A stretch of DNA of 60,317 bases, the filler included, from Hausera hauseri (Eukaryota), in assembly GCA_046269625.1 (NCBI GenBank). It is 10 parts of 10 records of this genome, joined end to end, with 100 filler letters (N's around TTAATTAATTAA, not from the genome) between each part and the next. Parts side by side here need not be neighbours in the genome. Positions count along the whole stretch, not along the records: positions 1 to 9,805 come from JBJURY010286613.1; 9 more parts are not named here. One strand, given 5' to 3'. Both the position numbers and the translations under genes were made by a program. Shown piece after piece: positions 1 through 59,511 of this stretch (positions are counted from its first letter, which is position 1; the number at the start of each line of letters is the position of its first letter). The notes under the pieces are model-generated. The model saw only the letters and a program-made list of their open reading frames with translations. It searched no databases and was not told the origin of the DNA.

Positions 1-22
1 GATTTATATCAGCCGAAGAATT

Positions 23-1358
23 ATGTCAGCTGCTAATATTATTGCACCAAACTTTCGGAAATGGACGTTGTTTCCAAACCAGGCAAATGTTTGTAATGCA
101 ACAAAACTACGGGAACTAAGAGAATCCATAAAGGAAGCAAACTTAGCCCGGCCGTTAGAAACTCCGGAGTATGATTTTGGACTACCCAAAAACGAAAACG
201 AATGGGACGCATATCTAAACGCAATAGTCGCCGAAAACCCGAAAACTCCCGTGCGCTTGTACGAAACGTATATTCAGTGTGGAGATGCTTCTGGATTCGG
301 CACAAACTAAAAAGGATCTAATTAAGTCGATCAGTGTAAACCTTACTGAAAATCAACTAAGGCGGTTAGTTCCCACATTAACTAAATTAGCCAGCGAATG
401 TACTGCACCAAAACTTTTAATTAAAGAATATGCTAAATTCTTAAAGACAAGGCCCGAAGAGACGATTAAAATAAGAATAACGTCTGACTAAATGGACGAA
501 AAGGAGCATGAATTTACTACGCGCTCTCTTATGAGCGATGTATTATTATGGATAAAGAGCAATGGATGCACCTATGAGCTGAACTATAGACTTTATCTTA
601 GAGGAAGAATATTAGACGAACTGGAACTACTAATAGAAGTTGGAATTATTCCAGGTGAAGTAAACCGGATAGTAGTAACAATTCCCACCGACGAAACAAA
701 AGAAGAGGCCACAAGGAAGTCAAAGACTGAACAATGGGTAGGACGAATTGTAGGAGCTCAAGACACAATAATGTACTTCGAATACTTGCAGACAGACGAG
801 GACAAAAAACAATATGATAAGAATTTAGTGCTACCCAGTAATATCGCTCCGACTGTAACCAAACAGAAGCGCCCTGTCGGCAGGCCACGGAAGATACGAG
901 AAGAAATTGACTATAACGAAAACATAATCAGAAAATTGAGACAAATGTCCATACCGACCTTCAGTGCAGATGACGAAAAACTGAATGAACTCATAAAAAT
1001 TGATACGTATAGTAAACCACTCTAGTCTCGACGGCGATATACTAGACGAGAAAGAGAAGGCTATATTTATTGCAGCCAAAACCATGAAAATTTTTGATGT
1101 AAATTATCCAGAAGCTCCTCAAGCAATGAAACGATAATCGAGAAAATTATGGTAGAGAACACTGTGGAGAAGTTAAGAAAAGTATTGCGGTATTTGGCCG
1201 CTAAATCCAATCCAGTCCGAGATAATGAATTCAATAAGGCCATTAGCTTGGCAAGGAAGGCTGCCAGGAATCTGCCCCGAGAAGTAAACTGGTCCAAATT
1301 ATTTGAAAGAGAAGAGAAACGGCAAAACAAGTCCTTCCTAGGCAATAATAGAATTTAA
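23..1358 (+). pseudogene. N-terminal region of the element polyprotein containing a ubiquitin-like domain (465-683) and an AT-hook (867-893)
   Basis: ORF pieces 279-491, 492-1025 and 1149-1358 share a frame; IKIRI...RLYLRGRILDELELLIEVGIIPGEVNRIVV parallels ubiquitin [38 protein letters not shown] fits the GRP AT-hook core. Confidence 0.55.
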
Positions 1359-1361
1359 GAC

Positions 1362-3757
1362 TTGTTACGAAACGTAACCGGAAATAATAGAGGGAACGAG
1401 TCAAACTGGTTAATTAACTTCTTAACTATGATGATGCTAATAAGGCAAATGGGTGCAGTTACCGTGTACGACTGCGACAAATTTAAACTTGGCCAAAAAT
1501 ACTCATTAATGGATTTGGAAATGTGTGAAGATGCGAGGCCACATAAACTAAAAACAAAAGAAAAAAGTTACGCGCTGTACCAACAACGGGAACTAGTTAC
1601 ATTAGACGGAATAGAATGTATGTTGCGACGATCTCGCAGTATCTTCCAATGTGGACAGGTACACGGGCATTCATCGATAATCAAGCCAACAACCTCACCA
1701 ATTCCGATGAACTTAGAACGCCAGCATTGTAAGCAAGCTAGAGAAACTAAAAGATTAAAATGGGATGGCATGGAATTAAAAATGCATCAAGGAAAGATAA
1801 TCAGAGTATATAAAGTGGCAGCTGGAAGACTATATATGCACACTGGACATTATAGTGGCGCAGAATACAATACTGGGAAATGATTGGAGTCGAACATCGT
1901 AGTGGTAGATTTTTACAAAACCGAGATGCGCCTACAAAAGGTAATGTTTCATAGCGCTACTAAACTTTACACAGAAAAGCAGAAGTGCCACGTTCAGGAT
2001 GGTACTTGTTCCTTTAGAAGTTCCGTGGTAATTTGGGAACCTCAGCCAAGACCGACTGCAATTTTATCAGAAATAAAGAACTTAAGTTTAATGAGACGAC
2101 AGGGAAACGATACATCAGTAGCACAGAAACTAAATCTAAAACGCAAGAAGTTATAGACGAACAGTTCACACCTACTACACTGATTTCTATTACTCATGGA
2201 TTTGGATTTGTGAAAAAAAATGTACTCACAAGGTGCGATGTCATAATGTACGCCACCAATTATAAAGCATTCTTTGTAGCTGAGACGACGATAAACGCCA
2301 GGACATTTAAGCTCGAGACTCAAAATATTCGAATTGAGGGTTATTTGAGAAACAGAGACGATTATTTCTACTATAAAGGACAAGCTGGAATAGCCGAGTT
2401 ATATCACAAAATAATAATAAATGACTGCAAATTAAACTTGGAAGTCATGCTGACTAAATTGGTTTTAATATATGCTAATCCTAAATTAGCATCACCAATA
2501 ATTCCAATGAAAGAAGGCGTTTTCGGACGAGTAACCAAAGAAGTCCTACTGACTTATGAATGTGAAAAGAATGAGGTACCTATTAATGTGGAAGAGAAGA
2601 AGTGTATGTAGAAACTTCCAGTAATATACCAAAACGTACCAAGGTTAGTAACACCAATTACTAGAGTATTGTTGGCAAACTCTACTCAGCCGACAATTCT
2701 GAGAGACTGCAAGATCAGTCAAGGCGAACCCATGTTCAGACACAGCGAAACCGATTGGGTAAGTTAACCAAACGGCGGCATAATTACGCCACCGACCAAG
2801 TTAACCGGAACAAATTTAATAAAGGGAATAACCGACGATAAGTTTCAAGATACCGCCACAAAAGGCATTTACCGACCAAAGGAAGTAGAGGCGCACCTAC
2901 AATTCCTTGCTTTCCCCCGTCAGCGCACACATGAATTAAACAAAGCGATGCATAGAATACTCGAGGATTCGCGTTATCAAGAAAAGTGGAAATCATTGCT
3001 CGGTGTCAACTATTACCGGAAGGTGACCACGGAAATATTGTATAAGATTTGGAGAAGATTCCTGATATTTGGACAAGCCGCGTCGGGATTTCTAGCAATT
3101 TTTTTCCTGATTCAACTGATCAAAGCAATAATTCAAGCGGTTATAAACGGATACAAGATATTCACCTTGACAGGATTCTCGTGTAAGATTCTAACAGCTA
3201 TTATAACACCTCTTGGTAAATTTTTAAAGGCTTATAAAGATAGTAGATGGAAAACGGATGTGAAGCGACATGTTGGCTATTATAATCGAAAACGTAAAAG
3301 ACGCATATTCGATTATAGGCAAAACTTCATAGACGGTAAGACACGAAGAAATAACTCTGACGATGACGAGCCTAAAGGAGGAGATGTTAGCCGCAAGTTG
3401 AATAGGCACAAAAACTACTCTGTTATGAAACTACCATTACCAATACTGCCGCCAACGGGACGTATATATAAAGACTGTGAGAAACAATCTATGAGTTCGT
3501 ATCAGACAGGGATCTACCGGAAGCCGTTTAGTCTAGAGGATCCTTACGAAGGAACCAAACACTACTGGATATTGCGTAAGATCCACGGAACGGAAAGAAC
3601 GTTTGCCCCACATCGTCGCTCAGCAGTCGACAATCACGGTATAATTTATTCACCTAGAATACCTAGACCAAACGAAAAGCAGTCAACATTTATCGGAAGC
3701 CGCGAAACACACCATCTCAGAAACCAAGAAATTCAACCGCCAGTTGGAAAACAGTAA
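1362..3757 (+). pseudogene. env: Chuvirus-like / herpes gB-like (class III fusion) envelope glycoprotein, disrupted
   Basis: Hydrophobic signal (WLINFLTMMMLIRQMGA) then VYDC...SL..LEMC; CGQVHGHSS; LYHKIIINDC; GVFGRV..EV...YEC; LPVIY...TPITRVL; KGIY; TM region FGQAASGFLAIFFLIQLIKAIIQAVINGY. This is the cysteine/motif pattern I recognise from chuviral G and retroelement-captured gB-type env. Confidence 0.85.
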
Positions 3758-5865
3758 ATAGAAAACGCGAAGTATACGAATAACGAACTATACCCAATTG
3801 GAGAATTAAGACAATTATTTGACCAACCAGTCGGAACCACCGAAGTTACCATTAACAACTACAAGGTGTCTACGATACGACGTCCCCAAATAGCACCAAG
3901 TTGTTACGGTACAGTAATCGATGGTAGACCCTTCGCAAAAATCCAACTAGAAGATTGGGAAGTTTACGCACTGATAGATACAGGATCCGAGATATCACTA
4001 ATAAAGTATGATTCAATACCTCAATTCCTACGGAAACAATTATATCCACCTCCCACAACAGACCCGAGAAGTGTTAGAGCTTTCGGACAATCGTCGAAAA
4101 GTAAATTCCTTTGGAAACCGGAAATTCGCATAATGGGATAATCCTTCCATTACGAATTTTTAGTAATTGAGCAATTAACTGATGATGTAGTATTAGGATG
4201 TGATCTATTGAAACAACTACCCAACATAGCGATATATTTTAATGCAGGGAAATTGATAGAACTTGGCCAAATAAAAGGAGTTAAAACTACTAAAGACAGA
4301 AAATTCGGAGAGATGTGGATTCCTGTGGATGAAAACATACCGCCCAGAACAGAAATATTAATATATGCTCAGATACGTCAAGATGACGACCAGCTAATAT
4401 ATTTTGAGCCGAAGGAATCACTTAATCCAAACATCGTGCTCAGTAATATTTTAACAAGAGTATCAACAGGGCGCGTACCAATCAGGATAGCGAATAATAA
4501 ACCCACTCCGATCAAACTGTATGCCAATACCACTTTGGGACACACGTATAGAGTATTATCAGTCACCATCGAAGAGAAACCTTATAAATGTACCAAATTT
4601 CCACCCCACGTTGAGACTAAATTTTCACCGAAATAATATTGCCGATTTTACGAATTACTTTGTAATTATAGCTCAGTCATTGCTAAGGATGATGAAGATA
4701 TTGGCCGAGCGAAAGCCTTAAGACTCACGATTCCACTTAAAAAAGCCTGGGTCCAACGATGAAATAGATTTAGAGGATCAAAAGATGCCGAAATAGTACC
4801 CCCTCCACAGTCATTAAGGCCGGAGATAACTAAGGAGGTTGAGCGAATGTTGAAAACCGACATAATCAGACCAAGTTATAGATCTTGCTATTCACCTACC
4901 CTTATGGTTAAGAAGAAAGGTACCGCTAAGCACCGATTTTTATCGACTATTGAGCGTTAAACACACTTATGATGAAAGACTCCTTCCCATTGCCATCGGT
5001 AAAGGAAGCTTTGGATAGACTTTCCGGCGATAAATAGTTCACCATACTCGATTTACAATCCGGATACTGACAAGTAGAAATAGAGGAAGAAGACCGTTAT
5101 AAAACGGTATTTAAGACACACGACGGTATATACGAATTTAATGTTATGCCATCTGGAATAACTACCGGACCGGCCATCTTCACCCGCATAATGAACAAGA
5201 TACTAATGTGACTGGAGCATGCGTTCGCCTACTTGGACGACGTCATGATTGCGTCGAAAACGGAAGAGGGTCATTTAAAGGATATTGAGGGTACATTCAT
5301 GAAGCTGGAGCAGGCTGGATTGAAAGTGAATTTCAAGAAGTGCAAATGGGCTCAGAATTCTCTGTCGTGCTTTAGACATATAGTTGGAGAAGGAGGGTCG
5401 AAGCCAGATAAATAATTATTAAATAAGAGATGGGACTGCATGGAACCCCAAAATCAAAAGGAGTTAAGACACTGGTTAGGGTTATGTGGGTATTATGCTA
5501 CCTATGTGACAAACAAATCAAAAATAAACGCACCTTTGTACCGCTTGCTTAAAAAGGGGATCAAGTGGAAATGGACTGACGTCGAGCAGAAAGCTTTCGA
5601 CGAAATGAAGAAGATTCTAACTAGTGAACCCGTTTTAAGATATCCCGACTTCAACCTACCATTCATAATCAAATCACACGCCAGTAAGGAAGGCATCGGA
5701 TATGAATTAGCTCAGAAAGGAGAAGACGAAGAGCTAGAGCACCCGATCGCATATGGAGGACGCTCTCTAAAAAAAGGCGAAAAGAACTATTCTGTAACGG
5801 AGTTGGAAATGTTAGCGGTAAAGGAAGCCCTGCGACATTTTAACGTGTACGTCTATGTACGTCTA
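3758..5865 (+). pseudogene. pol: Gypsy-type pol: aspartic protease, RT and N-terminal part of RNase H; truncated, no integrase
   Basis: ALIDTGSEISLI, VLGCDLL; RT FTILDLQSGY, YEFNVMP, AYLDDVMIAS; RNase H ASKEGIGYELAQ, EKNYSVTELEMLAV; sequence switches to unrelated DNA after RHFNVYVY. Confidence 0.92.
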
Positions 5866-5876
5866 ATTGAGCCAAG

Positions 5877-6580
5877 ATGGATGAGTTAATACAAAACATT
5901 ATTATAACATTATTGGAATTTCTAAGGACTTAAAGAACCAATATGTTCGAATTGAGACCAAAGTAGAACTGCCGAGAGGCAGACAAATTTCTGTCCGATT
6001 TATACCACTGAACGCCTTGGTTCCTATTCCGGAGTATTGTTATCTGGCCCGACGACGACCTACTGTGTGCTGTGAACTTCAATTAAGACAAGAGTATCAG
6101 TTACAACTGGATTTGTACAATACGTACTCCGGAGAACGAAGCACTTATTTAAGGGGATACCGTCCAAAAATCGGAATATGGAAGCGTCCATTTCCAACAA
6201 CTACGAGGGAACCATCTACTGTTCCGAGAACCACTCTCACTACTGCGATCGTGACTTCAGACGAACTGCTCAAGAAGGCAAAAAATAACAAAATCCTATT
6301 CTACGCTGAGGAAACGTTAATTTACGACGTCAAAATTGAATATCGCACCATGCACATCAATCAAATCGTAGTCTTAAGAAGGAATAGTCTGGAAACTGAA
6401 TGCAAATCATTACGACCACAACATAACTTTGTAGTCAGAATCACTGCAAAGGGTAAAAACCCTAAACCTTTTACAGTGCGGACTCTTGACAACAAAGTTG
6501 AAGTAATGCAGTATAAAGATTTTAGTACCCAAAATGCGTTCACCACAAAAGTTCTATTGAGAAAAACAATTTACCGATAA
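5877..6580 (+). pseudogene. Unknown element-borne ORF (frameshifted)
   Basis: 187-aa ORF 6017-6580 with short upstream extension, same strand and composition as the element; no motif confidently recognised. Confidence 0.4.
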
Positions 6581-6681
6581 TAGCTATATTTAGTTTGTCA
6601 ATTTTCGTTCTTGTCACGTTAACGGCGATGATTTTCCTAGTTTCCAAAAATTGTAGTAAACACAGTAAAAATCGAAAGGGA

Positions 6682-6840
6682 TATAAAAAGGTAAAAGGGT
6701 GCCGAGACGAACTTTATGATAGCATAACTTGACAATTAGAGATCAGGTTATCCTATCATCAGACAGAGAAAATGTTTTGTTTCAAAAAGATGATCTGTCT
6801 TATGATTGACCTTTGTTTTTATTTTAGCAGAGTAAGTATG
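6682..6840 (+). promoter_or_regulatory. Putative internal promoter (TATAAAA 6682-6688) and 5'-UTR intron (GT 6747 ... TTTTAG 6827/6830) before ATG 6838
   Basis: TATA box, CAG|GT donor, branch-like TTGAC, pyrimidine tract and AG just before the accessory ORF start. Confidence 0.4.
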
Positions 6841-9272
6841 GCCGAAAAGGCAAAGAATTCAGCAACAAGCTCCGAATATGATATTGGCAACTTCCTGCAA
6901 CAACGTGTAACAGTCCTCAAGCCACTATATAAAAGCTTATATCGCCAAATTGGATAAAATCTGAAAAACAAAACTTACGTCGAAATCGATCAGGAAAGCA
7001 AAATACCAAATGGGTTGAAATGGGGATTAGAGGAAAATCAACTGATTCGGCTACACGCAATGCGAAACCCCAGAAACGTGCGAGCATACTTGTTGAGGGA
7101 TATGATTCCGTATGAGCCGACGCATCAGCAATTGTACATATATGTCGCTGATAGAGAAATTTAATACAGGGCCGTAAGACAATCCTGGATCACACAAAAG
7201 GGACAGCAATGGAAATTTAGCACTTATGAATTAAGTTGCTATAGTCTTATGAACTATGCTTTAAAATTCAGAATCGCAGGACTTCCAACCAAACGCATGT
7301 TAAAAATGACCTAGTGAACAGAAGTAATAAAACCGCTACCATCATTACTATGAATATAGAAGCCTTCAGAAGATGAGATAGAACAGAATAAAGAATCTTA
7401 CAGACTAGTTCCAGACGGCCAAAATTCCCGAATTTTAGCCGTGAACTATGGAGAAAAGGATGATGGATGGTATACACAGATTGAAACCTATATTCGAGGT
7501 ACAAACGGGGAAGAACTTATAAACAAAATAATTGCACCCAGAACTAGGGTGAAGGACACCTTTACTGATGTCACCGGAATTACGAAAGCACAACTCGAAA
7601 CAGAGAAAGGTTTCTTAGAAATCCAGGAAGATATAAGCCACTGTTTATATGGATATATTGTAACCGGATTCCGAGTGCAAGAAATTTTAGGAAAACTAGG
7701 AATTAGACCAGAGTACCAGCCGGAATTTGTGAACTGAGTCGAAATCCAGCAGTTGTAAGTCAAGTAGAAAACACATTAATGAGAAAAAATGGGTGCCTCC
7801 TTCCGTCAGCATCAGGTGAATCACAATTCAAAATGATGTTGGAAGCCATGAATGGCGAACGATTAAAATTTCCTAAATTAATATCAGCGAGTCAGAGTAC
7901 GAAGCTTATAAAGGATATTTACGCCTCGCTTAGATGGGAACATTAGTGTAAACCTAGGAACCCCATACATAATTTAATATCCGATTACAACCCAAAGATC
8001 TTGATACAAAAATTTCGGAAAGGGTTTAGTGAATACTCAACTCATAGACAAGTCGAGCCCCAAGGACACAACCGATTCCAAATAACCGTTCATAATAGGT
8101 CAGCGAAAACGTTCAGCAACCGGCAAGAACCCTCGACCAGCCGAGCCCGAGAAGAAATCTTAAAAAGTTCAAGTAACCCCGAAACTTCAAGAGGACAAAA
8201 GACTAAAACTTCCTTCTTAGAATATATTAGCAAAAAAAGGAGAAAAAATAGTAAGAACCAAATGGAAGAAAACAAGTCACCTGCTAACAGCTCTACGCCA
8301 AACGAACAAATGAATGAGCATAACAAGAAACCCAAGAGGGAGAGAGCTGGAAATTCCGACGAAATCAAGGTGAGAACTGCTGATACAAAGCCCCGTAAAA
8401 CAGAAGTGAACGTTCTTCGGAAGAATTGGGAAGAAGATGAACCGATCATAGTCACAGAACGTGGCCAAGTAAAGGAGTATACAAGAATGCTCGTCATGAC
8501 CGAATATTACAGCAAAGGCAAGATCAAGGAAGTCATATTCTACGTATCCACTGTTCCTAGGAGAATCGTAAGTGGAAACGAATACGTTCGAGAAGACACA
8601 ACCATTGGCAAATACTTAGCCCCAATATTCCAGTCGAAAAACGGTACCAATAGATTAACCATTCCGGTAGATACCAAAGTCCGGATACAATTAAAAAGGC
8701 AATATAAGAAAACCGGAAAACCAGACTTAGACCAACAAAAAATCGTCGAATGGACGTTGGTCATCGTGTCACACGACTCCAAGAAAACCTCTATCGATCC
8801 GAAACAAAAACGACTATATGAATACCTATATCAAGATAAGAAGGGATTAGTATTTGAACAAATAGAAGTTGACGAAAATCTCGTGGACATAGATGGAGGT
8901 GAAAAAGAAGAATGCCATGTTTATGACGCCAATCTCTATCAAGGATTCGTGGTGTTGAATAATAAAGACTGTATCCGCAAGTACTGCCGGTACTGTTTAG
9001 AAATGTGGACCCTGAAAAATGGTAAGACGAGCTGCCCTGTATGTAGAGCTGCGGCTACAAGACTGAGGTACTACGCCAATGGAGAAAATAAAAAAATAGT
9101 GGAGATATTGCCCCCAAAACCCACTACATCCTATCACTTTGACTTACACTCACCGCAAGAAGAATCGGATTCGAAATCGGACCTACGTGGACGAATGAAC
9201 CGGTTACGCGGCACCTCTTCTGACGCAATGGGCACATCCGAGAGTGCCGTTCAGGGAGCAGAAATGTTGTGA
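6838..9272 (+). pseudogene. Accessory protein: REXO4/ISG20-like DEDDh exonuclease fold (catalytic residues substituted) plus C-terminal RING finger
   Basis: IIAPRTRVKDTFTDVTGITKAQLETEKGFLEIQEDISHCLYGYIVTGF matches the REX4-type YVKP..VTDYRT.VSGI...L......EVQ..V...L.G.ILVGH pattern; C-terminal CHVY...CIRKYCRYC...W...CPVCR (8913-9047) is a RING pattern. Confidence 0.7.
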
Positions 9273-9805
9273 AATGGTCGTAAACGCGAATTGTACATAT
9301 GCCAATACGAAATTGAAAAATGAAACCGAAAGTGAAACTGAAAATAAGTATTGAAAATGAAAAATTATTATTATCCAGAATTAAGCAGCAAATCTGTAAA
9401 TATGAAATTGTTTATTGGAAAGGAAAATTATTGATTATTCCTTAAATAACGGAAAAATTAAATGAACATTGTAGAAAATTAGTTGTAAATAATAATTGGA
9501 AAATTATTGCTTATGACTGCTAACTATATAAGGCAGTACAAAATCAGTTAACGCGAACATTGAACATTGTGAAGTTGAAGTTGAAGTTGAATTGTATTGA
9601 GGTATTTGGAAAGCTCCGATATCCAGTTATTCTTGAAAATTGAATTTGTTCGAGCTATTGAAGCGTTGTACGAGATTCGGATATTCCTCGAAGGATCCCA
9701 CAGTTGAATTATTGAAAATTTGAAGCAATTATTACTTATTAATCCGACGATTGTATCGTCTGGTATATTTTGTTTATTGTCAATAAATTTGTATTCTAAA
9801 ATTCT
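9265..9805 (+). repeat. Putative 3' LTR of the env-bearing element (truncated by contig end)
   Basis: Purine tract AGGGAGCAGAAA immediately followed by TGTTGTG at 9265; TATATAAGG at 9525; AATAAA at 9782; partner LTR not in window. Confidence 0.55.
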
Positions 9806-9905
9806 NNNNNNNNNNNNNNNNNNNNNNNNNNNNNNNNNNNNNNNNNNNNTTAATTAATTAANNNNNNNNNNNNNNNNNNNNNNNNNNNNNNNNNNNNNNN
9901 NNNNN
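9806..9905. other. Artificial contig linker (N-run + TTAATTAATTAA + N-run); also at ~15459, 23502, 28712, 33126, 40120, 44981, 51176, 55342
   Basis: Identical six-frame-stop linker between N runs, repeated nine times. Confidence 0.98.
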
Positions 9906-11614: not shown

Positions 11615-14600
11615 ATGGTGGGTTTTGTTTTCTTATGTGTGCTCCTCAAACAATATATTTGTTTAGATTTGCAACTTTTACAAATTTTACATGGTGCAGA
11701 AACATGAGGAGCAGAATTACCACAATGTGATGCAGCAGTATTTTGGATACCAATACAACACGTAGTATGCCGGGCCGGTTACGAAGAATTTTACATCCAG
11801 CATAAACAGCATCTGGATTATTTTACAAAATTGAAGAAAGAAATATTCAACAGTAAAATACCAATGGCAACAAGTGCAGAAAAGCAATTCAGATGTGCGG
11901 TTCCTATGCTTATTGCACATCCACAGCACATAATCTGCAACGGTGCCATGAAACGATGCAGCAGTATTATGGACACAAATTAAAAAGGATCCAGTATTAT
12001 ATATATATCCGGGATGTGAGACTGTATGCGGCGCAGATTGCATAGAGTTCTATTATGATCACAAACATCATTTGAGTTACTTCGCATCAAAGTCAAAGAA
12101 GGCCATCTTTAATGAGCAATATAATCTTGATGCACCTGCTTCGCACCATTCTGCTTCGCATTAGGCTGCTGGATCCGGTGCAGCAGCTGCGAAGCATATT
12201 AGGGAATTGAAACGCTCAGCAGCATCATGCGCAGCTACATCATGCACAGATGCTCCACCGAAAAGCCCAAGGCAGCGGTCAGCTGATGTGGCAGCATTAA
12301 AGAAAAATATCCGCGGATATATTATTGATGCAACTGGTCAAACAACCCTCAAAGAGTTTCTGGAGTATACAAAGGAAGAGACAGAGGGAATTCTCCAGGA
12401 CAACATTGCAGAGCTCAAAGCCCTTAAAGTGAATATGAAACTGGAGGCCACGTACATTAATGTTGATGGCAAAGAATCCAATAGGGCCTTCAAGATCAGA
12501 AATAGGCCAATATTGGAAAGAATCAATATTTTAGAATGGATGTTTGAGGCGCACGCAAAGATAATCCATGAAACCGAGGAGAGCCAGGATAAGAAGAGTG
12601 GCTGGACTCTGGCAACAGTAAAGAAATTGCGTGTTTTTGTGCAGAAGTACTCTTCCATGCGTGACAGCTCCTGTACACAGCTTCCGGAATGGATCGTCAA
12701 TAATAAAGCATGCATCAATGTCCTTGATGACGAAAACAAGTGTTTAGTGTATGCCATTTTATGTAAACTCGTATGGGATCAAAAATATGCAGCATATCGA
12801 GTTTGGCGATATAATGATTTGCAGCACAACTATAACTTACAATGTATTAAGTTCCTTCCATCCACAGATGAAGTTAAAAAATTCGGGCGAATCAACAACA
12901 TGTCCATCAGTATTTTCGGATTGGATGAGGAGGACAAATTTTATCCCTTGTCGATATGTGATACTGGATTGGAAGATCATAGGAATCTGCTCCTACTAGA
13001 CGATGGAGAAAAGAAGCATTATGTTTGGATCAAGAACTTTAAGCGTCTAGTCAGATCCCAAATAACAAAGCATGAGCACAGAATCGAAATATGCAAAAGA
13101 TGCTTGTCCCATTTCATGGCAAGTTAGCTGTAAAAAAGCTAAAGGAGCACAAGACTATTGCAACAACAATTATTGTATCAAGCCAGAATTTCCCAAGGAA
13201 GACTACATTGAATTCAGGGAGTTCAAGAAGAAAATCAAGGTGCCAATAGTTATCTATTGCGACTTTGAAGCTATTCTGTGTTCAGTTCACAGTTGCAGTC
13301 CTAATCCCCAACATAGCAGCAAAACGACATACCAATATAATGTACTTTCATCATATTGCATGTATATCAAAGGACTGGACAGTGAACCATATCTATTCAA
13401 AGATCCGGTCGCAGCAGCACAATTCATGAAGCGACTTGACGATATGGCTCATAGACTTGGGGATATGTTGCAAAAGCATAAGGACGACATGAACATGTCG
13501 AAGAAGCTAAAAGAAGAATGGCACAAGGCAATAGTATGCTACTTGTGCTCCAAATCATTCACTAATGATAATTATAAAGTCAGGGATCATTGACATTTTA
13601 CAGGAACATATCGGGGCGCAGCATGCAAGAACTGAAATCTACGTTGAAAAACATGTACATATGTGTCTGTAGTGTTTCACCATCTCGGTGGCTATGATTC
13701 CCGTTTCATTGTTCGGGAACTGGGTAGCATTGAAGAAAACATTGAGATGATCCATAGTAGTGAGGAGAAGTACATTACTCTTACCAAGCATGTTGAAAAA
13801 ATCAGGTTTCGCTTCGTAGACAGTTTTTGTTTTATGTCGATTTCACTTGACAGTTTAGTGAAGAACCTCCCTGTAGAAGAACTGAAGGAGATGAAGTAAT
13901 TCTTCCTTACTACATTTGACCTTGTTAAGAGGAAATGCGTGTTTCTCTATGACTATATAACATCATGGGAAACACTGGATGAGATCTCATTGCCGGCCAA
14001 GACGGACTTTTACAATATCCTCTCTGATTGCGATATCAGTGATAGGGACTACCAGAATGCTCAGAACGTCTGGCATGCATTTCAATGCCGAACATTAGGA
14101 GAATACAGCGATATATACGTCAAGATGGACGTGCTGTTTATGACGGATGTCTTTGAGAGATTCAGGGATGTTAAGATAAGGGCCATGCATTGAATCCGGT
14201 TCATTCATTTACGGCTCCAGGTATGAGTTGGGCAACCATGCTGAAATAAACCGGTATTAGGCTTCAGATCATAAACGATTACGACAAGATCCTTATGATC
14301 AAGAGAGGCATTAGAGGAGGAATATGCCAGATAATTCACCGATGTAGCGAGGCCAACAACAAGTATATAGCCCAGTATGAACCATCCAAGGAATCCACAA
14401 ATGTATATCATACCTGGATACCAACAACCTATATCGATAGGCAATAAGCGCCCCATTGCCATATAATAACTTCAAGTGGGTCAAAAATCCTGAAAACATC
14501 CCTATACTGGACCTGAATCCCACTGGAGATACGGTCTACATACTGGAGGTGGATATGGAATATCCGGCTTCTATCCACACAAGGCATCAACAGCTGCCTT

Positions 14601-15446
14601 TCCTCCCTGAGAGCAAGCCTCCGCCCCATGGAAAGCATAAAAAACTGCTATGCCATTTGGATAGTAGGGAGAGGTATGTAGTCCACTACATAAACTTCCA
14701 TCAGGCGGTCAGAAATGAACTGCGCATTACGAAGATCCATCGGGTCCTGAAGTTTAGCCAGTCCAACTGGCTGCAGCCCTACATAGATCTCAATGGCAAG
14801 CTGCGGACAAATGCCAAGAAAGATTTTGAGAATGATCAGTTCAAGCTTTACAATAACAGCGTTTTTGGCAAGATCATGGAGAATATCCGCAACAGGATGA
14901 ATATCGAACTTGTTTCTGAGTGGAAGCGGGCAAAGAAGCTCATTTCCAGGCCCAGCTTCCACAGCAGCATCATATATGCGGAGTACAGTCAGCATTCATA
15001 TGCTGAAAACATCGCTTGAGTTTAACAAGCCGATATATGTGTGTATGGAAATACTAGACCTATAAAAGACCATTATGTACAAATTCCACTAAGGCATTAT
15101 GGTCCCAACATTCAAGTCCATACAGCTGATATACATGGATACTGATAGTTTCATCTATCGGATCCATACAGAGGACATTTATAATGACTTTTCTAAGTTC
15201 ACACAGCATATTGATGCTTCTGATTATCCGAAGGAGCATTCCAACTGTTCAATTACCAACAAGAAAATCCTTGGCAAATTCAAAGAGGAGGTGAATGGGG
15301 CAATTATCTTGAGGTTTGTGGCTCTTAGGTCCAAAATGTATGCGATTGATGCATGTTGTCATATCAAAGAGAGAGCTAAGGGCATTCAAAGGGTTATCTT
15401 AGGCAAGATCACTTTTGCGGATTATGTGAGAGTTTTGCATGAATAG
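11615..15446 (+). pseudogene. Polinton-type protein-primed family B DNA polymerase with endonuclease VII-like Zn domain, disrupted
   Basis: SGWTL..., LPEWIVNNKACINV, VIYCDFEA, CYLC...VRDH.HFTGTYRGAAC, FHHLGGYDS, KLYNNSVFGK, YMDTDS, LGKFKEE, LRSKMY. Confidence 0.9.
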
Positions 15447-15558: not shown

Positions 15559-18230
15559 GAAACGTTCGAAAAGGCTATCCGATTGGAAATCATAAGGTGT
15601 TGTATAAATATGGCTTATCGGACCTTGGACCGAGATGATGAAACGAGGAGACCCGAACCTACTAATACACGTACGAATGGAAGCATCGGCTATTGTGTTA
15701 GAGTTTGTTCTCAGAAGAGAATTGGCTTTTGACCATCGTAAGGAACGGTGCATCATGGTCAGAATGAATTGGTGGCCGTTGTCCATTGGAAGAGGACCGA
15801 CGATATCGATTTGTGCGGTTGCAAAACGTGATATGCAAGCGAAGTGGTATAGTCGTGGTTTTAAATGTTTCACGGTTTTATATTTCTGACAAGCCACGCA
15901 TTCTCAAACCAATGTTTGCACATCAGAACGCATTGATGGCCAAACTACCTGACGTTGGAAAAAGCGAAAAGTTGCCTTGGCACCAGGGGGTGTAGATAAT
16001 GTACACTATCAAATGCTTGTTTGTGTAAAGATGGAGCAAGAAATATTTTGGATTGTCCTGGTTTGGAAGTATCTAAAGCCACGCCGTCAATGATGTGGTG
16101 AGACTTAAACGACTTGAGAATATCTTAAGATGGCTGATTTTCTTGACGTTTTGTCTGAGTAAAAATTAGTGAAAAATTGATTGAACCGACTGATCTGGAT
16201 AAAAAATCAGCAAATAGATTGTTAAAACCGTCAATGTGTTTAATGTCGAAGTTAAATGTGGACAAATATGAAATTTGTCGTTCTTGTCGAGTTGAAGGAT
16301 GTTTCATTGCCATTATATTAATCCACGATTTGTGATCAGTCTGTGTAACGAAATGACGAGCTGTAAGTAAGTGGGAAAATGTCTTAAAGCAAGAACTATT
16401 GCCAGAAGTTCCCGATCGAAAGTTGAATATCTAGTTTCGGGTGGTGTTAATTTTCGGGAGGCTGATTTTCGCTATTATACAACTGAGGTAATCCGGCGCC
16501 TACTAGGATGTTTGCTGCATCTGTGGTCAAAATTAGCTCAGTGTCAGGCTTAGAAAATGCTAGTATTTCAGCAGTTTTTAATCCTTCTCTTAGCCTATCA
16601 AACCTGTCAACCACTTGTGGCGTCCATTGGATTTTCTGGTGTTTTTTCCTCCGCTTAAGTGGGCAAAAGGTGCCGTGAGATCCGAACAATATGGAACATA
16701 TTTGTGAATGAAATGTAAGGTACCAAGAAAACTGCACATTTCTGTGGTTGTTCTAGGTAGTTGGACGTTTTTAAGAGTCACAACTCGATCAGGTTAAGGT
16801 AAATGGCAGTTTGATAACATAATATGTCCAAGAAAGTTAATGCGTTTTTGGAAGAAGTTACATTTTGCAAAATTGATCTGTAGATTATACAGATTAAGTC
16901 GTTTGAAGATAGATCGCAGGTGTTTCTCGTGTTGTTTGATAGAAGAAGAAGCAGTCAAGATATTGTCCATATATGGATGCGCAAAAGGAAAGTATGAAAG
17001 GATTGAATCGCCGTGTCGCTGAAAAGTCTGCGCAGCATTCCGAAGACCCAAATGCATGAACAAGTATTCATAAAGACCTAAAGGTGTAGTAATTGTAGTT
17101 TTCTCGATGTCTTCCGGTACGACAGGAATTTAGTGGTATGCTTTGGCTAAACCAATTGTTGAATAGACTAACAAAATTAAGCAGATGTAGTATGTCATTA
17201 ATCAATGGTAGTGGGTATGCATCCATTACGGTTAAAGTATTAAGCTGGCGGTAATTGTCGCATGGTCGGAAAGATCCAACTTTTTGGACAACGTGGAGAG
17301 GCGAAGACCATGGGGATTTAGATATACGAACAATACCTGATTGTTCGAGTTCAAAGAATTCCGCCTCTACTGCCTGCCTCCGTCAGGGTGATAATGGACG
17401 AACCTTTTGACGAATGGGTCTTTGGTGTTATGTAATGATATGATGACAGATGTCAGTTTCAGGAATGAATTTTCGATCTTTCTGAAGTATATGAGGACAA
17501 GAAGTATTGATGAATTGTTGAAAACTTACGGGTAGTTGCCAGAATATTAAAGGTGACAGTGAACCGATGTTATTAGAAGTACTTGATGAATGTAGGTTAA
17601 CTGCTGGTGCAAAATAGGGTAGAATCTGACGTAAAGTGGTCGTGTTAAAGACGGTGTTTGAGAAAGTGGTTTCATTTAGTGATTTTACCGAAGAGACAAG
17701 ATTGTGGCTATCAACATTGAGCTTCGACTGATTGTCGACTTTATCCTTTAAAAACTTACAAAATAAAATATGATAGTTAAGATAACAAGAATGAGGCATT
17801 TACTTTTAGGACTGATTGCCTCAATAGTGCTGGCTGTGCTGTCGTCGTCATGTTGTCTATTCGAGAGTTACATTTTCCAGTTGTATTTTGTTTCAGACAT
17901 TGTTGTTTGCAATCAACAAGCAAGTTATAGTGCTACAGGATATCGGAGTTAGGTATTGCCATCTGATTGTTAGCGACTGTAAATATCCAGTGAAATGTTG
18001 AGGAAAATTGTGGAAGAATGAAAGATAATTTTTATGTTTGGGAGATATAAGGGGGTTGACCGAAAGCCGTTTATAAAGATTTTGTTTTAAATGAAGGATT
18101 CTGGACCAGAAAAGAAAGTGGTAATAATGAAATCGCTGCACCGGTATCGATGAGAAAATCTATAGATTGAATGTCAGGAGTAGAGATTCCAGTTTTCAGT
18201 GTAAAAACTGCAAAAGAAGTGTGTCGGCAA
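15559..18230 (-). mobile_element. pol: Decayed CsRn1/Kabuki-like Gypsy pol (protease-RT-RNase H-integrase)
   Basis: FLIDTGAAISLLP, GLRNAAQTFQR, YMDNIL, LTTDAA, CQKYK, IDIVGPLP. Confidence 0.88.
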
Positions 18231-20158: not shown

Positions 20159-22092
20159 ATGACAAAGACTAAGTTTTTCAAACTTGAAGAAGCACGGGCC
20201 ATGGTACTGGAAGATGAGGAGATCAAGGAAACAGACGTTGTTGTATTGCCACCATCAACAGTCGATCAGCAAAGTGACTGTGGACACTTGGATGAAAATG
20301 AAGTGCTGACAACTGACAGTCTTCTCAAGGATGTTGTTGAGTGGGTGGAAGTATATTTCACTAGAAGGGCTGATCAGGAAGTAGCTTCTTGGAGCCTTAA
20401 ACTAAAGGCCAAGCAGAGAAAAATAAAAGCAAACGCAAATATTGCCAAACCTTCCAGAAAATCTGACTGCTTTCGTAAGCCGACAAAATGGTATGTGCAA
20501 AATATGGAGGAAATGAATGATGTGCAGACATTAGAAGATGGGCCACAAGCAACGGAAACTGTCAGTCTATCAGCAAATAAACAGTTGGAAGAACCTAGAA
20601 CAATGAAGCTGCTAATAATTACCAAACCTAATGTTCTGTGGAAACAGCAGAAGCCACATTACACGTCACAGCCTGTGAACATAGAAAGCAAAAATTATCT
20701 GACTTCACAGCAGTATTGATCAACAAAACTGAGGTACAACTGTTTGAAGAATTCTTTGATAATGAAGTCATTGGCCTTATAACGTCGCAAAGTAATTTAT
20801 ATTTCCAGCAACAGAATCGTCATGAGTTAAGTGTTTCCAGTCTGCAGATCAAGAGATTTATTGGATTTCTTTTGTTTACTGCTTATCATAAACTTTCAAG
20901 AGAGGATATGGACTGGCAGAATGCAGATGATTGTAATGGGAGGATAGTGACAAACGCTACGACCCGACAGACATACAGAGAAATAGAAAAGAATCTACAT
21001 CTGGCTGATAATGGGCAAGCTCAGCAAAACGACAGACTATATAAAATTCGTGACTATATTGGATTACTGAATGCCAAGTTTTCGAAATTTGGTGTCTTCG
21101 CCCACATTCTAAGTATTGATGAGCATCTGATTCTATACTATGGATTACACAGCTGTAAAATGTTTTTAAAAGACAAGCCAATTCGTTTTGGATTTAAATC
21201 CTGGTGTTTGTGTTTGGCTGACGGCTTTCTGTTTCAATTTTTGCTATATATAGGACGAGATGATACTACCGATTGTGAGCTGGGTCTTGGTGCACGTTTG
21301 GTATTGCAGCTTTTGGAAACAGTTTAGGAGCCCGGAGAACATGCAATGTATTTTAACAATTTTTACGTCACATACGTTGCCGATTACATTGCGTGAAGAA
21401 CATTATCTTGCAACTGCAACTGTTCCTGAGCAGTTGCTGATGGAGAGCTGCAAGTCAGTACAGAAGAACAGTAGGTGCAGTTATGTCTGTTGCTGTTGCA
21501 ATGAAAATGAAGTGCTAGCTGTCAAGTGGAATGACAATTCTGTAGTGACTCTGGCCACGATCTTTCAGACTACTGAATCACTTCTTCCAGCAAAACGATT
21601 TTCGCGATCTGAGCAAAAACTTGTTATTGTGTCACAGCCCAATATTATTGCTTCATATAATGCTAACATCGGAGGTGTTGATTTGATAGATAGTTTTGTG
21701 GCAAACTACAGGATTGCATTGAAAAGAAAAGTGATGGTGGCCGCCGTTTGTAAACTATATCGACGTTGCTTTGTGCTATTCTTGGAGATTCACCGTCTTA
21801 TCCACGGCAAGGAACTTGATCTGCTCGACTTTCAAAGGCGAATAGCACCTACCTTGCTGTCTATTTTAGAAGATGAATCAGATGCAACAAGAAATGAACA
21901 TTTATGTGGCAGACCATCACAACTGAATTGTTTAAATGGTCTTCGGCAAGGACTGAGATCACTTCATTATAAAGAACCCGGATGATCGAAGGCTTCTTTG
22001 CAGAGCGTGCAAAAGTACAACATCGTATGTGCAGCAGATGTCTGATTGGTTTGCACGAAAAACGCTTTGCATCCTACCATAACCAACTCTGA
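20159..22092 (+). mobile_element. Decayed piggyBac (PGBD-like) transposase
   Basis: SIDE, KPIRFGFK.W, YFNNF (second Asp mutated), KWNDNSVVTLAT, YNANIGGVDLID, remnant C-terminal Cys-rich domain; frameshifts. Confidence 0.88.
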
Positions 22093-23601: not shown

Positions 23602-26600
23602 GACGTTCACAGTCGCTAACGTCCAGACGGCAATTCTAGGATCCGACTTTCTATCACACTATAATTTATTGGTTGACTGAAGTCAGCGATGTTTGAGGAA
23701 CGGCACCACTGACGACATTTTTGGACATGTCAATAGCATTTCGACTACCGCGCGGTCGACCGGAACGCGGAGGCCAATCTTAAAAAATCAATGAATAATT
23801 CGAATTTCCATAATAATAACTAAATTCGTAAATTTTTAAATAATAATACTGATATTCGATTGAGTTTCGATGTCGATAATTGTGGTACTACCACCAACGT
23901 TAATTCATTCGACGAAATCACTTCATCCAACACCATTTTCAATTCGACTATCTTACACCAAATACCACTTTATTGCACATCACCAAACAACTCACAAATC
24001 GCATCCGATACTATTCAAGCCATTTCACCACTTCCACCAAATCTCTCACAGTTACCTACAACTTTACAGCAATTCGTCAACACATCATTTCCACGCGTAC
24101 TTAAAAAAGATCGTACGTTTACTCCCGCCAACAGTACTTTACACCATATAGTTACACAGCATCAACGACCAATATGCCAAAAGGTAATACCTCTGTCACC
24201 TCGTCGAAGACAGGCCGTAGAAGCCGAATTTCTCGAACTAGAACGTTCCGTCATAGTGCGCCGTTCCAAATTTCCTTGGTCATCACCGTTACACGTTGTA
24301 CAAAAAGGACGGTACTTTTAGACCATGCCGTGACTACCGACAGCTGAACAACTTGACTATCATGGATGTGTACCCTTTACCACTCATCAAGGATATCCTG
24401 CATCGTCTTAATTCAACCACCATCTATTCGCCCATTGATTTAGCTAAAGCATACCATCAAATACCGGTGGCACCCGAAGACATAAAAAACTGCTGTCACT
24501 ACTCCTTTTGGTCTCTACAAATACCCGTTTATGCCATTCGGTTTGCGGAATGCCGCACAAACTTTTCAGCGGCACATTGATTCAATTCTTTCAGATTTCC
24601 CATTTGCACACCTTTGTATCGATGATATTCTAGTCGTCGGCCAAACAACACGAAAAACACCTTTGCGCAATATTCCAATGTCTTAACCACCATAATCTCC
24701 AAGTCAATTTCGACAAATGCCATTACTTCAAAAAGCGCATTAACTTTTTAGGCCACGTTATTTCACCAGACGGTCATTCTCCCCAACCAGATCGAGTCGA
24801 AGCTCTTAAAAATATCCATTTGCCACGCACAAGCACTGAAATGCGCAGCTTCCTTGGTATACTATACTTTGTACATAAATATGTACCATATTGGTTCGAA
24901 TTGACAGCACTATTCGCACAACTAAGCGGCAGCAAAAACATCAGCCAATCCAGTGGACACCTGAATTGGTTGACGAATTTGATAAGCTACGCGAAGGAAT
25001 TAAGACTGTCGATATTCTGGCTTTCCCTAAGCTTGATGCAGAACTCATTCTTACTACAGACGCGTCAACCACTGCAGTAGGCGCCGTACTCCACCAAATC
25101 TACAAGGGAGAAAATCAACCAATAGAATTTGTCTCTCACAAGCTAACATGCCCTGAAACCAGATTTTCAACGTTCGATCGAGAACTATTGGCCATCGTTC
25201 TCGCTTTAAAGCATTTCTCCCACCTATTTGTCGCTTGTCATTTCACTATACACACCGATCACAAACCCTTACTTAACATCATTGCTATGAAATACCCTTC
25301 CACGCGCCAAAAACGACAAATATCATACTTATCGACATTTAACTTGTACATTGAACACATTAACGGGGTTAACAATTTGGTTGACGATTTTTTATCTATG
25401 TCGGTTAGTTCGATTAATTTTTCGTCGGTCTTTACGCAAGATCAACTTCAACAGAACCAGCCACCTCAGGACATGCCTCATTCTTTAAAATCTTGCACAA
25501 TCGTTGACGGCGTGGCTTTATACACTTCCAAACCAGGCCATTCCGTAGTAATTTTAGCACAATCATTGTAAAGGCAAGCATTTCACAGCGTGCATTCACT
25601 ACACTATCCTGGTGCTAAAGCTACATTTCGTTTACTTCATCGACAAGTAATATGGCCGTCAATGCGTTCTGATGTGCAGCCATGGGTGAAGGAGTGTGTG
25701 GCTTGCCAAAAATACAAAACAGCTAAGCATTTAAAGCCACCAATATTCCACTTTCCCTGCAAATCGCGTTTCGAATCCGTGAATATCGACATCGTTGACC
25801 CTCTTCCTCCAGACAACGGACATCAATTCATTCTCATCATGATGGACCGTTTTTCGCCATGGCCAGAAGCCATCCCTCTGCGAAGTACAAACACCGACAC
25901 CATAGCTGACGTTTTCATTCGCACATGGATTAGCAGGCTTGGATCACCTCGTTTCATCATCACGGACCAGGGTCCACAGTTTGAACTCAACCTGTTCAAA
26001 TCCCTTGTTAACCGATTGGGGATCTATCACACATACTACGCCTTATCACCCCCAATCGAATGGCCTTCTAGAACGTTTCCACCGAACATTGAAAACGTCA
26101 CTAAGAATTCTAGCAGAGACCAACACTAGTTGGACGAATCTTCTTCCGTTTGTTCTTCTCGGCTGGCGGAACACTCCGTCCACTTTTACAGGATGCTCAC
26201 CTACTGAAGCCTTATTCGGAGCTTCTGTCCGATCATTATTTGAACTGACCGCCCCGGACGACGTTCCCACAGATGAAGCAATACGGGCAGCCCAAAATCA
26301 CTTTGTTACGGTCATCAAAGACTCATTCTGCAGGATACTTCACAAAGATAAAACATACTTACCCGAAGATTTGTATTTGGCAAAATTCGTATGGCTAAAG
26401 AATCAGGCGCTTTGGGGTTTCCAGCCACGGTATTTGGGACCCTATGAACTGATACAGCTGCACTCACACAACGCCATTATCTCTAAAGATGGCAAAGAAC
26501 TTACAGTGCATATTACCAACTTAAAGCCCGCCCTTTTCGTCGACGACACTTTACCAACCGACACGTCAACCTCTTTTCTCACTCCCATACTCCCTGTTAT

Positions 26601-37500: not shown

Positions 37501-37869
37501 GAGCTCTAGAAAATTAGCTCTCCGTGCCAATAACGTGAGAAAAGAACACATCAAACTAACATGTTTCAAAGAAAAAAGTCCGAAACATGAGTTTATAGTC
37601 ATTGCCGCTGAACTGCTCCTTTCTAGTAAACAAATAAAGAAACGTAAGTTTATCATTTAAATTCATTGCTTAAAGGATTATTAATATCAACTTGAGAATA
37701 AATTCTGAAAATAAAAGTCCATTTTTTTTTTCCTTAATAAAGCAAGCATATAGATAAAAAGTAAAAAATATATGATGCTTAACATAGTAAAGACAGCAAA
37801 AAGCATGAAAGTATGTAAGCTTAAATATGAGAAAAAGTTATATATATAAGGTGTATATATATATATATA

Positions 37870-39202
37870 CGAGGCGTATCCGTAAAGTAAGTACCGTTTC
37901 GTTCTAATGCCGCTGCAGCGCTGCTGTCGGCGCTCAGTGCATGCGTACTTGTTTCCTCTGTTCATCGGCTACAAACTCGCGCCATTACGGTTGATTTGTC
38001 TTGCGTTGTGCGTTTACGGTGGCCGTTTATAATGTTTAAAAAAATCGATGCTCCCGCCGACTGTGAAATTCGTTCTGTGATCCGGTTTTTGAATGCGAGG
38101 AACGTGAAGCCATCCGAAATCCATCGTCAGATTACGGAGATTTACGGTGAAAGTGCAATGACGGATGGAATGGTTCGGAAGTGGGTAAGACAATTCAAGG
38201 AAGGACGGACAAATGTCCACGACGCAACACGAAGTGGGCGGCCCTCGCTTGTGACGAATGATTTGGTCAACAGAGTGGATGAGAAAATTAAAGCGAACAG
38301 ACGAGTGACAATGACAATGCTTGCAGAGGACTTTTCACAACTTTCGAGAACTGTGTTGCATGAGATCGTAACCAAACGTTTAGGGTATCACAAGCTGTGT
38401 TCCCGCTGGGTACCGAAAATGCTGACGGATGAGCACAAAACAAAGCGACTGGGCAGTGCTCTGACATTCCTTACCCGGTACCATGATGAAGGTGAGGACT
38501 TTTTAAACCACATCGTTACCGGTGATGAAACGTGGATTCGCCATCTTACTCCAGAATCCAAACAACAATCGATGGAGTGGAGACACACAAGTTCCCCCAC
38601 AAGGCACAAATTCAAAACAACGTTTTCGGCGCAAAAAATCATGTGCTCTGTATTCTGGGACACGAAAGGTGTTTTGCTTGTGGAATATTGTCCCAGAGGT
38701 CAAACCATCAATGCGGAACGTTACCGTGTGACTTTGCGGAATCTTAGGCGAGCTATTCAAAACAAACGTAGAGGAATGCTCAGTGACGGAATTGTGTTGC
38801 TGCATGACAATGCTCGGCCCCATACTGCTCGTGACACTGAACGGCTAATTGAACAGTTCGGTTGGGAACAGTTCAATCACCCGCCGTACAGCCCAGACTT
38901 GGCACCGTCTGATTTCCACTTGTTCCAGCACATGAAACGAGAACTTGGAGGTAGGCGCTTTGCTTGTGATGACGACGCAAAAAACGCTGTAAATGTATGG
39001 CTCTCTTCATTGGCGGCAAGTTTCTTTGAGGCAGGTATCAATAAGCTGGTGAGCCGCTACGACAAGTGCCTCAACAATGGTGGAAACTATGTTGAAAAAT
39101 AATGTAAGGTATGATCTTTCATGTAAACAATAAATAATGTTTAAAAATATTTCTTTTATAGGTTTTTTTTCAAAACGGTACTTAGTTTCCGGATACGCCT
39201 CG
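37870..39202 (+). mobile_element. Full-length mariner transposon
   Basis: 30-bp TIRs (CGAGGCGTATCCGTAAAGTAAGTACCGTTT, 2 mismatches) flanked by TA on both sides. Confidence 0.97.
38032..39102 (+). CDS. Intact mariner DD34D transposase (356 aa)
   Basis: HTH region, WVPKML, TGDETW, HDNARPH, YSPDLAPSD with exactly 34 residues between the second and third Asp; no stops. Confidence 0.96.
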   Translation: MFKKIDAPADCEIRSVIRFLNARNVKPSEIHRQITEIYGESAMTDGMVRKWVRQFKEGRTNVHDATRSGRPSLVTNDLVNRVDEKIKANRRVTMTMLAEDFSQLSRTVLHEIVTKRLGYHKLCSRWVPKMLTDEHKTKRLGSALTFLTRYHDEGEDFLNHIVTGDETWIRHLTPESKQQSMEWRHTSSPTRHKFKTTFSAQKIMCSVFWDTKGVLLVEYCPRGQTINAERYRVTLRNLRRAIQNKRRGMLSDGIVLLHDNARPHTARDTERLIEQFGWEQFNHPPYSPDLAPSDFHLFQHMKRELGGRRFACDDDAKNAVNVWLSSLAASFFEAGINKLVSRYDKCLNNGGNYVEK

Positions 39203-39229
39203 TACATGAAAATACCATGAAAAAAAAAA

Positions 39230-55341: not shown

Positions 55342-55531
55342 NNNNNNNNNNNNNNNNNNNNNNNNNNNNNNNNNNNNNNNNNNNNTTAATTAATTAANNN
55401 NNNNNNNNNNNNNNNNNNNNNNNNNNNNNNNNNNNNNNNNNCTTGGCCTTATCCTATATCCCACATTACTTGATCAAGAAGACAACACGATATTTCTATA
55501 CAACATTTATTAAACAAAAGAATAACAATAT

Positions 55532-58500: not shown

Positions 58501-59511
58501 AATCTTTTGATGGTTGCCAGAGTCCATACGCTCTTCTTACTCTGGTTCTTATCAGCTTCACGGATCAGCTTCGCATGCTCTTCATGCAGCCATTCTACTA
58601 TATTGGTGGCTTCAAAAATGGGTCTATTTCTGGTCATGAAGGCCCTTTTGGACTCTTCGCCATCAACATTGACGTATGTGGCCTTAAGTTTCATATTAGA
58701 CTTAATGGTCTTGAGCTCAGCTATGTTGTCTTGAAGAATCCCCTCTGTTTCTTCCACTGTGTACTCCAGTAACTCCTTGATGATTGTTTGACCAGTTGCA
58801 TCAATGACATATTTGCGGCATTTCCTCTTTAATGCTGCAGCATCAACTGGCCTCTGTCTTTGACCCTTTGATGCAGCCGGTACGCCTGATGCGCGTTTTA
58901 GTCCTGCATCTGGCTGTACTGCAGGCTGTGATACTACAGGCTGTAGTACTACATGTCGTGGTACTGCAGGCTGTGCAACTGGCTATGTTTATTAAAAATG
59001 ATCTTCTTTGACTTTGATGCGAAGTCAGTCAAATGATGTTTGTGATCATCATAAAACGGTATGTATTCTCCATCACATACAGCCTCACATCCTGAGCAAA
59101 TATAATAAATTGTCCTGTTGACTTTGTGTCTATAATAGCTCCTCATGGTATTGTGACAATTCTGAGGGTTGAGTATTACACATGTGCAATACACATGAAT
59201 TGCATCTTTGATTTTCCTTTGGCACGAAAGTCGTTATTGGCATATTGGTACTGAATATTTGTTTTTTTGACTTGGTGAAAGAAATCAAGTGCTGTTTATG
59301 GACATTGTAAGTCTTAATAATTGGTTTGGCATACTACCTCACATGTAGGGCATATATAATACTGAACCATGTTGTAAATATAGCTAAAGTATTTCATCAC
59401 AATACTGTGGCAATTTTCAGGCTCATGAATTTGAACCAAGCATTCTCTGTAAGGTTTGCACATCTAAAAATCAACCAATTATTTGAGCAGCACAATTAAA
59501 AAATTCACCAT
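55532..59511 (-). pseudogene. Near-complete Polinton-type protein-primed PolB with endonuclease VII-like domain, paralogue of 11615-15446, disrupted
   Basis: GSSYIQVPDWITNKKACVNV, CYFC...VKDNCHFTGTYRGAACNNCNL, KGVFPYDY, RGIRGGI, YLDSNNLYGYAM, YMDTDS, DDKR...GIHTLPHG; AATAAA at 55506-55511(-). Confidence 0.92.

Follow-up and report, generated by a model that had tools for sequence, protein, structure and literature searches.

A broken gene in the genome of Hausera hauseri (GCA_046269625.1) bears on the open question of whether animal LTR elements encode active counter-measures to innate sensing or to silencing by small RNAs. We asked what protein this gene encoded, whether it belonged to the retroelement beside it and what such a protein could do. 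The window, that is the whole stretch of 60,317 nucleotides that was analysed, consists of several records joined by N44-TTAATTAATTAA-N44 spacers, at positions 9806-9905 and at 8 more places. The gene, referred to here as the accessory gene, sits in the record covering positions 1-9805, which ends at the spacer (9806) and starts inside an element; the parts past 9805 are not its true neighbours. The original prediction described it as a fusion of a catalytically dead REXO4/ISG20-like exonuclease with a RING finger.

The accessory gene was found on the plus strand at 6838..9272, with an ATG at 6838 and a stop at 9270, and the motifs lay where the original prediction had placed them: Exo I (ILAVNYGE, 7432-7455), Exo II (TGFRVQEIL, 7663-7689), Exo III (LISASQST, 7878-7901) and the RING finger further downstream. 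The window copy is heavily damaged. Seven internal stops interrupt it (6955, 7162, 7312, 7315, 7351, 7357 and 7944), and a single shift of frame, at about 7690-7737, leaves two pieces of 299 and 511 codons. Its order is an N-terminal domain, a pseudo-DEDDh exonuclease, a variable linker, a pre-RING domain, a C3HC4 RING and a tail.

A full HMMER scan of 1,835,955,588 representative proteins with the C-terminal piece as query returned exactly one match, an 870-residue protein (P0001; E 2.9e-94) that is encoded on a 16,242-bp contig and forms a singleton cluster with no named relatives. P0001 was collinear with the entire accessory gene, from its N-terminal domain onwards, with 115 of 276 positions (42%) identical in the N piece and 210 of 547 columns (38%) in the C piece, where the alignment reached the last residues. 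Since P0001 runs collinearly through both frames of the window, these belong to a single gene and the fusion occurs in nature, as the idea of a single frameshifted gene had held. Word-indexed protein searches gave no further relatives of the window pieces and, with P0001 as query, returned P0001 alone; locus scans of viral contigs and metagenome contigs gave no relatives either. As judged from these alignments, the family is two sequences, a four-domain protein in which a dead DEDDh fold and a canonical RING have been kept across about 60% divergence.

Two further conserved domains, which the original prediction had not covered, emerged from this comparison. The N-terminal domain (6877..7377, about residues 56-225 of P0001) could be placed in no named family, had no Pfam match and was identical at 69 of 159 aligned positions (43%). 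The pre-RING domain (8484..8903), directly before the RING, could likewise be placed in none; it was identical at 71 of 140 positions (51%), an ESM Atlas search gave no named lead for it at a score of at least 0.9, and it is a candidate substrate or partner binding module. Identity reached 76 of 182 positions in the exonuclease-like domain (7420..7943) and 31 of 52 in the RING (8913..9047), and fell to 34 of 109 in the poorly conserved, Lys/Arg-rich linker (8097..8483), in which a basic cluster (8232-8249) is a possible nuclear signal. The exonuclease-like domain is as conserved as the N-terminal domain and more conserved than the linker, a pattern that appears to point to selection on its fold.

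The true start of the gene is uncertain, and homology to P0001 begins at 6877. Just before the ATG, positions 6806-6837 hold a pyrimidine tract that closes with AG and runs straight into GTAAGT (6832), an acceptor-like signal adjoining a donor-like one, and the P0001 N-terminus at the matching spot reads FLFLA-KVS, which such splice signals could spell. The accessory gene may have been made from a spliced message, with a true start that differs from the ATG at 6838.

We then considered the exonuclease fold. From the window alone the signal was weak: Pfam RNase_T gave an E value of 0.14, and the exonuclease piece matched SDN1 in the PDB at E ~1. Rows for FliL and dihydrolipoamide dehydrogenase ranked above SDN1 and were rejected, P0001 having no match to either; three rows from a tblastn search of the same piece against phages (E 7-8) were taken as chance. 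In the ESM Atlas, 25 of the 30 matches of the window piece fell in the RNase_T set (score 0.90), with 150 of 256 features in common, which is below the 170 typical of same-family matches. Through P0001 the match was firm. Residues 241-420 matched DnaQ (8h18; E 1.4e-4) and PolC (2p1j; E 4.5e-4) in the PDB, the third and last row being a porin at E 1.6; the NCBIfam PolC and DnaQ models gave E 0.004, the PHROG exonuclease phrog_192 gave E 1e-4, and the sole row against plasmids was a 3'-5' exonuclease at E 0.06. A DEDDh profile of our own was made from 10 bacterial and phage exonucleases, with the plasmid match left out to avoid circularity. With this profile P0001 scored 22.8 bits and the N piece of the window 9.0, while 1000 shuffles of either sequence reached 4.8 at most; the C piece gave no score. 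By hhalign, the probability was 58% (E 1e-4) over 60 columns. P0001 is not listed under Pfam RNase_T, the DEDDh matches falling below curated cut-offs, and AlphaFold2 models were of low confidence (pLDDT 43 and 28). The DEDDh (DnaQ/RNase T) fold, described as recognisable in the original prediction, is thereby supported, at the level of sequence, through P0001 and the profile of ten exonucleases.

The REXO4/ISG20 label, on the other hand, was not supported by these comparisons. With the P0001 domain as query, two of the three rows at E up to 10 were exonuclease chains, DnaQ and PolC; REXO4 and ISG20 chains, which are presumably present in the PDB set searched, were absent from the matches at that threshold, where DnaQ and PolC were best and SDN1 weak. 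The data single out no DEDDh subfamily as the donor.

The three motifs are kept in 10 of 10 reference exonucleases, whereas none of the five D-E-D-H-D catalytic positions is kept in the window or in P0001. In the HMMER alignment to DnaQ, the Asp and Glu of Exo I fall on Ala and Asn in both sequences, and not on Asn and Gly as first proposed; another register does give Asn and Gly in both. The Exo I replacements are therefore identical in the window and in P0001, with no acid in either register. In P0001 and the window respectively, the Asp of Exo II is replaced by Met and Ile, and the His and Asp of Exo III by Leu and Ile and by Cys and Ser. Exo I lies inside the DnaQ match, and the significant match ends at Exo II; the register of Exo III comes from global alignment only, outside every significant local match, and the global mode of hhalign placed it differently.

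The lost residues might reflect mere decay of the window copy, in a family whose exonuclease is active. The seven stops and the frame change would suit this, and 8 of the 9 copy differences listed inside the coding part (among the 40 of 2,237 differences that were listed, none of them at a catalytic codon) are non-synonymous, so that decay is not excludable from the window alone. The original argument that the motifs had changed more than neutral decay would allow was for this reason insufficient when drawn from the window, given its heavy decay and Exo I codons that lie few base changes from those of the motif. The pseudo-nuclease itself stood, because intact P0001, at about 40% identity, also lacks D-E-D-H-D at all five positions and carries identical Exo I replacements: both sequences share an old loss of the catalytic residues, which are not restored in the intact relative, and simple decay is largely refuted and now barely credible. 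A non-canonical nuclease that is active through shifted acidic residues is also very improbable. Acids just after Exo I are common to both sequences (E253, E255 and E263 of P0001) and may leave a residual metal site, but the position of the Exo II Asp, where the significant match ends, holds Met or Ile, no H-x4-D is common to both, and four or five ligands would need replacing.

The other half of the fusion could be read more directly. Two of the eight ligand positions in the RING of the window copy, codons 8922 and 8976, are filled by residues that are not ligands, and on its own this RING matched Pfam zf-RING_2 at E 0.005 and the RNF4 RING in the PDB at E 2e-5. In P0001 all eight C3HC4 ligands are present, against six of eight in the window; PF00097 scored 30.8 bits against a Pfam cut-off of 21, and the best PDB rows for the P0001 RING were RING E3 ligases. 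The proposal that the RING deviates at two ligands only was thus borne out, and profile matches to both fold and RING, weak in the window, were obtained through the relative. RING ligases engage E2 through Trp, Pro and Arg residues, and these are present in the RINGs of the window and of P0001. From these hallmarks, the accessory RING is a predicted E3 ubiquitin ligase.

Copies of the gene were found in the one sequencing run that carries the stretch, which may be the window's own source and so is not independent. From 15.5 million contigs read, 15,938 were placed at ≥80% likeness to the stretch; all 30 bins had depth, and most contigs were less than 95% alike. The places listed inside the accessory gene were covered by 6 to 66 contigs, and therefore the gene is part of a multi-copy repeat family in that one run. 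At the second odd RING ligand codon, 27 of 27 contigs of depth differed from the window, and this deviation is therefore private decay of the window copy.

Next to be settled was the element to which the gene belongs. On the plus strand of the same record, a broken fusion glycoprotein gene (env; Pfam Monjiviricetes_fusion, E 6e-13, 2e-8 and 2e-20) occupies 1410..3245 and precedes pol, its final piece sharing a reading frame with a retroviral-type aspartic protease (3926..4219; RVP, E 5e-6). A broken reverse transcriptase core (4996..5355; RVT_1, E 3e-27) and a Gypsy-type RNase H (5572..5859) follow on the same strand. With Gypsy-type protease, reverse transcriptase and RNase H and with env upstream of pol, the record agrees in these parts with Ty3/Gypsy (Metaviridae) GAG-ENV-POL elements. 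Upstream of env, the plus strand holds orphan frames (1-1358), one of which (492-1025) has an AT-hook-like motif (Pfam E 0.35); Pfam gave no gag match there or anywhere in 1-9805. In the spacer between protease and reverse transcriptase (4300-4560) there was no Pfam match; in Burro and rotifer elements, a dUTPase-like domain lies between protease and reverse transcriptase. Two named element types were set aside: Pliego virus was rejected, and so was Troyka, which is described in the accessible text of PMC12440569 as a single gag-pol with integrase and no env, whereas env is present here.

The RNase H breaks off at a direct repeat of 10 bp (5846-5865), and no integrase match was found after it or elsewhere in 1-9805. 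Because this junction is a break, and because it was bridged by none of the 8 contig pieces listed (of 16,115), linkage of the accessory gene to pol is unproven. The accessory gene could then be foreign to the env-pol element of 1-5860 and have been joined to it at 5846-5865, being either the 3' portion of a different repeat or a host gene that was captured; P0001, known as a protein alone, leaves room for this. Several observations nevertheless speak against a junction of unrelated pieces. Strand and composition are uniform through 1-9272, the env-pol part and the accessory gene having a common strand and A-rich bias (AT skew 0.17-0.29, compared with 0.05 in a Gypsy pol elsewhere in the window). 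Diverged copies cover 30 of 30 bins in the one run, a singleton cluster without named relatives is unlike a conserved host gene, and LTR-like signals lie downstream. These signals are in an AT-rich tail on the plus strand (9273..9805), with TATATAA at 9525, TCAGT at 9544 and AATAAA at 9782 as TATA, initiator-like and poly(A) signals; the tail is a possible 3' LTR, as judged from these signals, and no 5' LTR is in the record. We therefore consider a foreign origin improbable, and the accessory gene likely belongs to an envelope-carrying Ty3/Gypsy element. Between pol and the accessory gene lies an orphan open frame of 231 amino acids (5885..6580, plus strand), with no meaningful family match in Pfam, NCBIfam or PHROG.

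The above findings led us to a model of function, to which we give slightly less than an even chance: the product would be a nucleic-acid-guided E3 ubiquitin ligase acting against host defence. Like PML's PXL, Exuperantia, Maelstrom and EXD1, the dead nuclease fold would grip RNA or DNA but leave it uncut, and this grip would dock the protein on the element's own RNA or cDNA. The RING would recruit a host E2 and ubiquitinate host silencing or restriction proteins arriving there, and the pre-RING domain would choose or position the host targets. Viral RING E3 ligases such as HSV-1 ICP0 are a usual tool for degrading host defence proteins. ICP0 is comparable in having a C3HC4 RING encoded by a selfish element, but it has no nuclease-derived domain and no homology to the accessory protein outside the RING.

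With the same gene and the same E3 activity, the dead nuclease could instead be a protein-binding adaptor, or a decoy, that traps a host nuclease, a partner of that nuclease or a silencing factor through mimicry, and would not bind nucleic acid. The fold is kept though every catalytic residue is gone, and the P0001 domain shows no basic excess (27 K/R against 27 D/E), its neutral net charge suiting such a role. Against this, the best-kept stretch of the domain runs from after Exo I up to Exo II, which in DEDDh enzymes generally lines the substrate cleft. Published pseudo-DEDDh domains, moreover, retain nucleic-acid binding in the accounts accessible to us (PMC13659232, PMC5408684), Maelstrom and EXD1 being stated to do so (PMC5408684). 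On balance we regard the adaptor or decoy as rather unlikely.

A ligase serving the element's own cycle, through turnover of Gag/Env particles, trafficking, budding or timed RNA release and not through counter-defence, is a further alternative that we hold to be distinctly unlikely. The element has an envelope gene, and ubiquitin assists the budding of enveloped retroviruses; budding elements, however, usually borrow host ligases via short motifs. Moreover, three ORFs are all that is described for most Gypsy elements with env, as far as the accessible text of PMC13524379 goes.

The favoured model, a guided ligase against host defence, was then compared with known systems. PML isoform 1, as described in part of PMC13659232, joins an RBCC to the PXL pseudo-exonuclease, which binds nucleic acid and has a positive patch. 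Like the accessory protein, it carries a RING and a catalytically dead DEDDh fold in one chain and is placed in retroelement-host conflict (PMC13659232, PMC10123124, both in part). Unlike it, PML-1 is encoded by the vertebrate host, restricts retroelements and has the RING first, B-boxes, a coiled coil and a SAM-like subdomain (same sources). The accessory gene has the opposite order, with no B-box match in P0001 (Pfam), and its dead domain is without the basic excess that would correspond to the positive patch reported for PXL (PMC13659232, in part). No PML or TREX1 chain was among the PDB exonuclease matches of the P0001 domain, and the resemblance to PML-1 is likely convergent, judging from order and matches. 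The architecture mirrors that host restriction factor, which suggests that both sides of the conflict reached one solution. More specifically, an animal endogenous retrovirus lineage may have built a RING with a pseudo-DEDDh fold independently of vertebrate PML, giving a ligase on element RNA or cDNA that destroys piRNA or innate-sensing proteins; this narrower version we hold to be possible but doubtful.

Among retroelements, the nearest parallels each cover part of the architecture. ORF3 of the bdelloid LTR retrotransposons Juno and Vesta, and of Terminons, is a DEDDy exonuclease (PMC5408684, in part), and is alike in being a DEDD-superfamily exonuclease carried as an extra ORF downstream of pol. 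It is RNase D-like, with catalytic residues intact (DEED), and the accessible text of that paper mentions no RING, whereas the accessory gene encodes a dead, DnaQ-like DEDDh domain fused to a RING and two unnamed domains. The giant planarian Gypsy elements Burro/GYPSM1 have env before pol along with ubiquitination and apoptosis modules, their cargo comprising AIR1/RING, MATH, BIR, Ubl, BCL2 and ankyrin (PMC6431247, in part). GAG-ENV-POL errantiviruses are known in nematodes, bryozoans and flatworms (PMC13524379, in part). Both resemble the present element in a mononegavirus-like fusion protein before protease, reverse transcriptase and RNase H, in frame with pol (PMC6431247, PMC13524379, as accessible), and Burro also in accessory modules tied to ubiquitination (PMC6431247, in part); the accessible text of neither paper describes an exonuclease-RING ORF. 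MATH, BIR, BCL2 and ankyrin modules of the Burro type were not found by Pfam in the 9.8-kb record, Burro being compared by description only. We found no description of an exonuclease-RING fusion in a retroelement in the papers searched; Repbase, the supplements of the errantivirus survey and the Burro genome paper lie outside that scope and may list one. The architecture is real and apparently undescribed so far. If the model is true, the gene would represent a retroelement-encoded counter-defence ligase of a kind not found described, and P0001 is a naturally intact test protein, one half of which reads as a ligase and the other as a dead enzyme.

Other mobile sequences were seen in the remaining parts of the window. 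Fragments of piggyBac-type transposases and at least 3 other Gypsy pol/integrase pieces lie at 20632-21985, 24634-26129, 15619-17165 and 54362-55393; the other Gypsy pieces are only about 28% identical to the reverse transcriptase and RNase H of the env-pol element in record 1-9805. A protein-primed DNA polymerase B region of the Polinton/adintovirus type, with an endonuclease VII-like motif, occurs in two related copies (75-83%), at 12000-15406 and 55730-59104. A Mariner/Tc1 element at 37858-39214 is bounded by inverted ends of 42 bp, and its transposase frame is open over 403 aa. On the minus strand at 47702-49164, an MTPAP-like nucleotidyltransferase (PF22600, E 2e-20) adjoins a zinc-knuckle frame (PF00098) and may represent either mobile cargo or a host gene of TUTase-like type.
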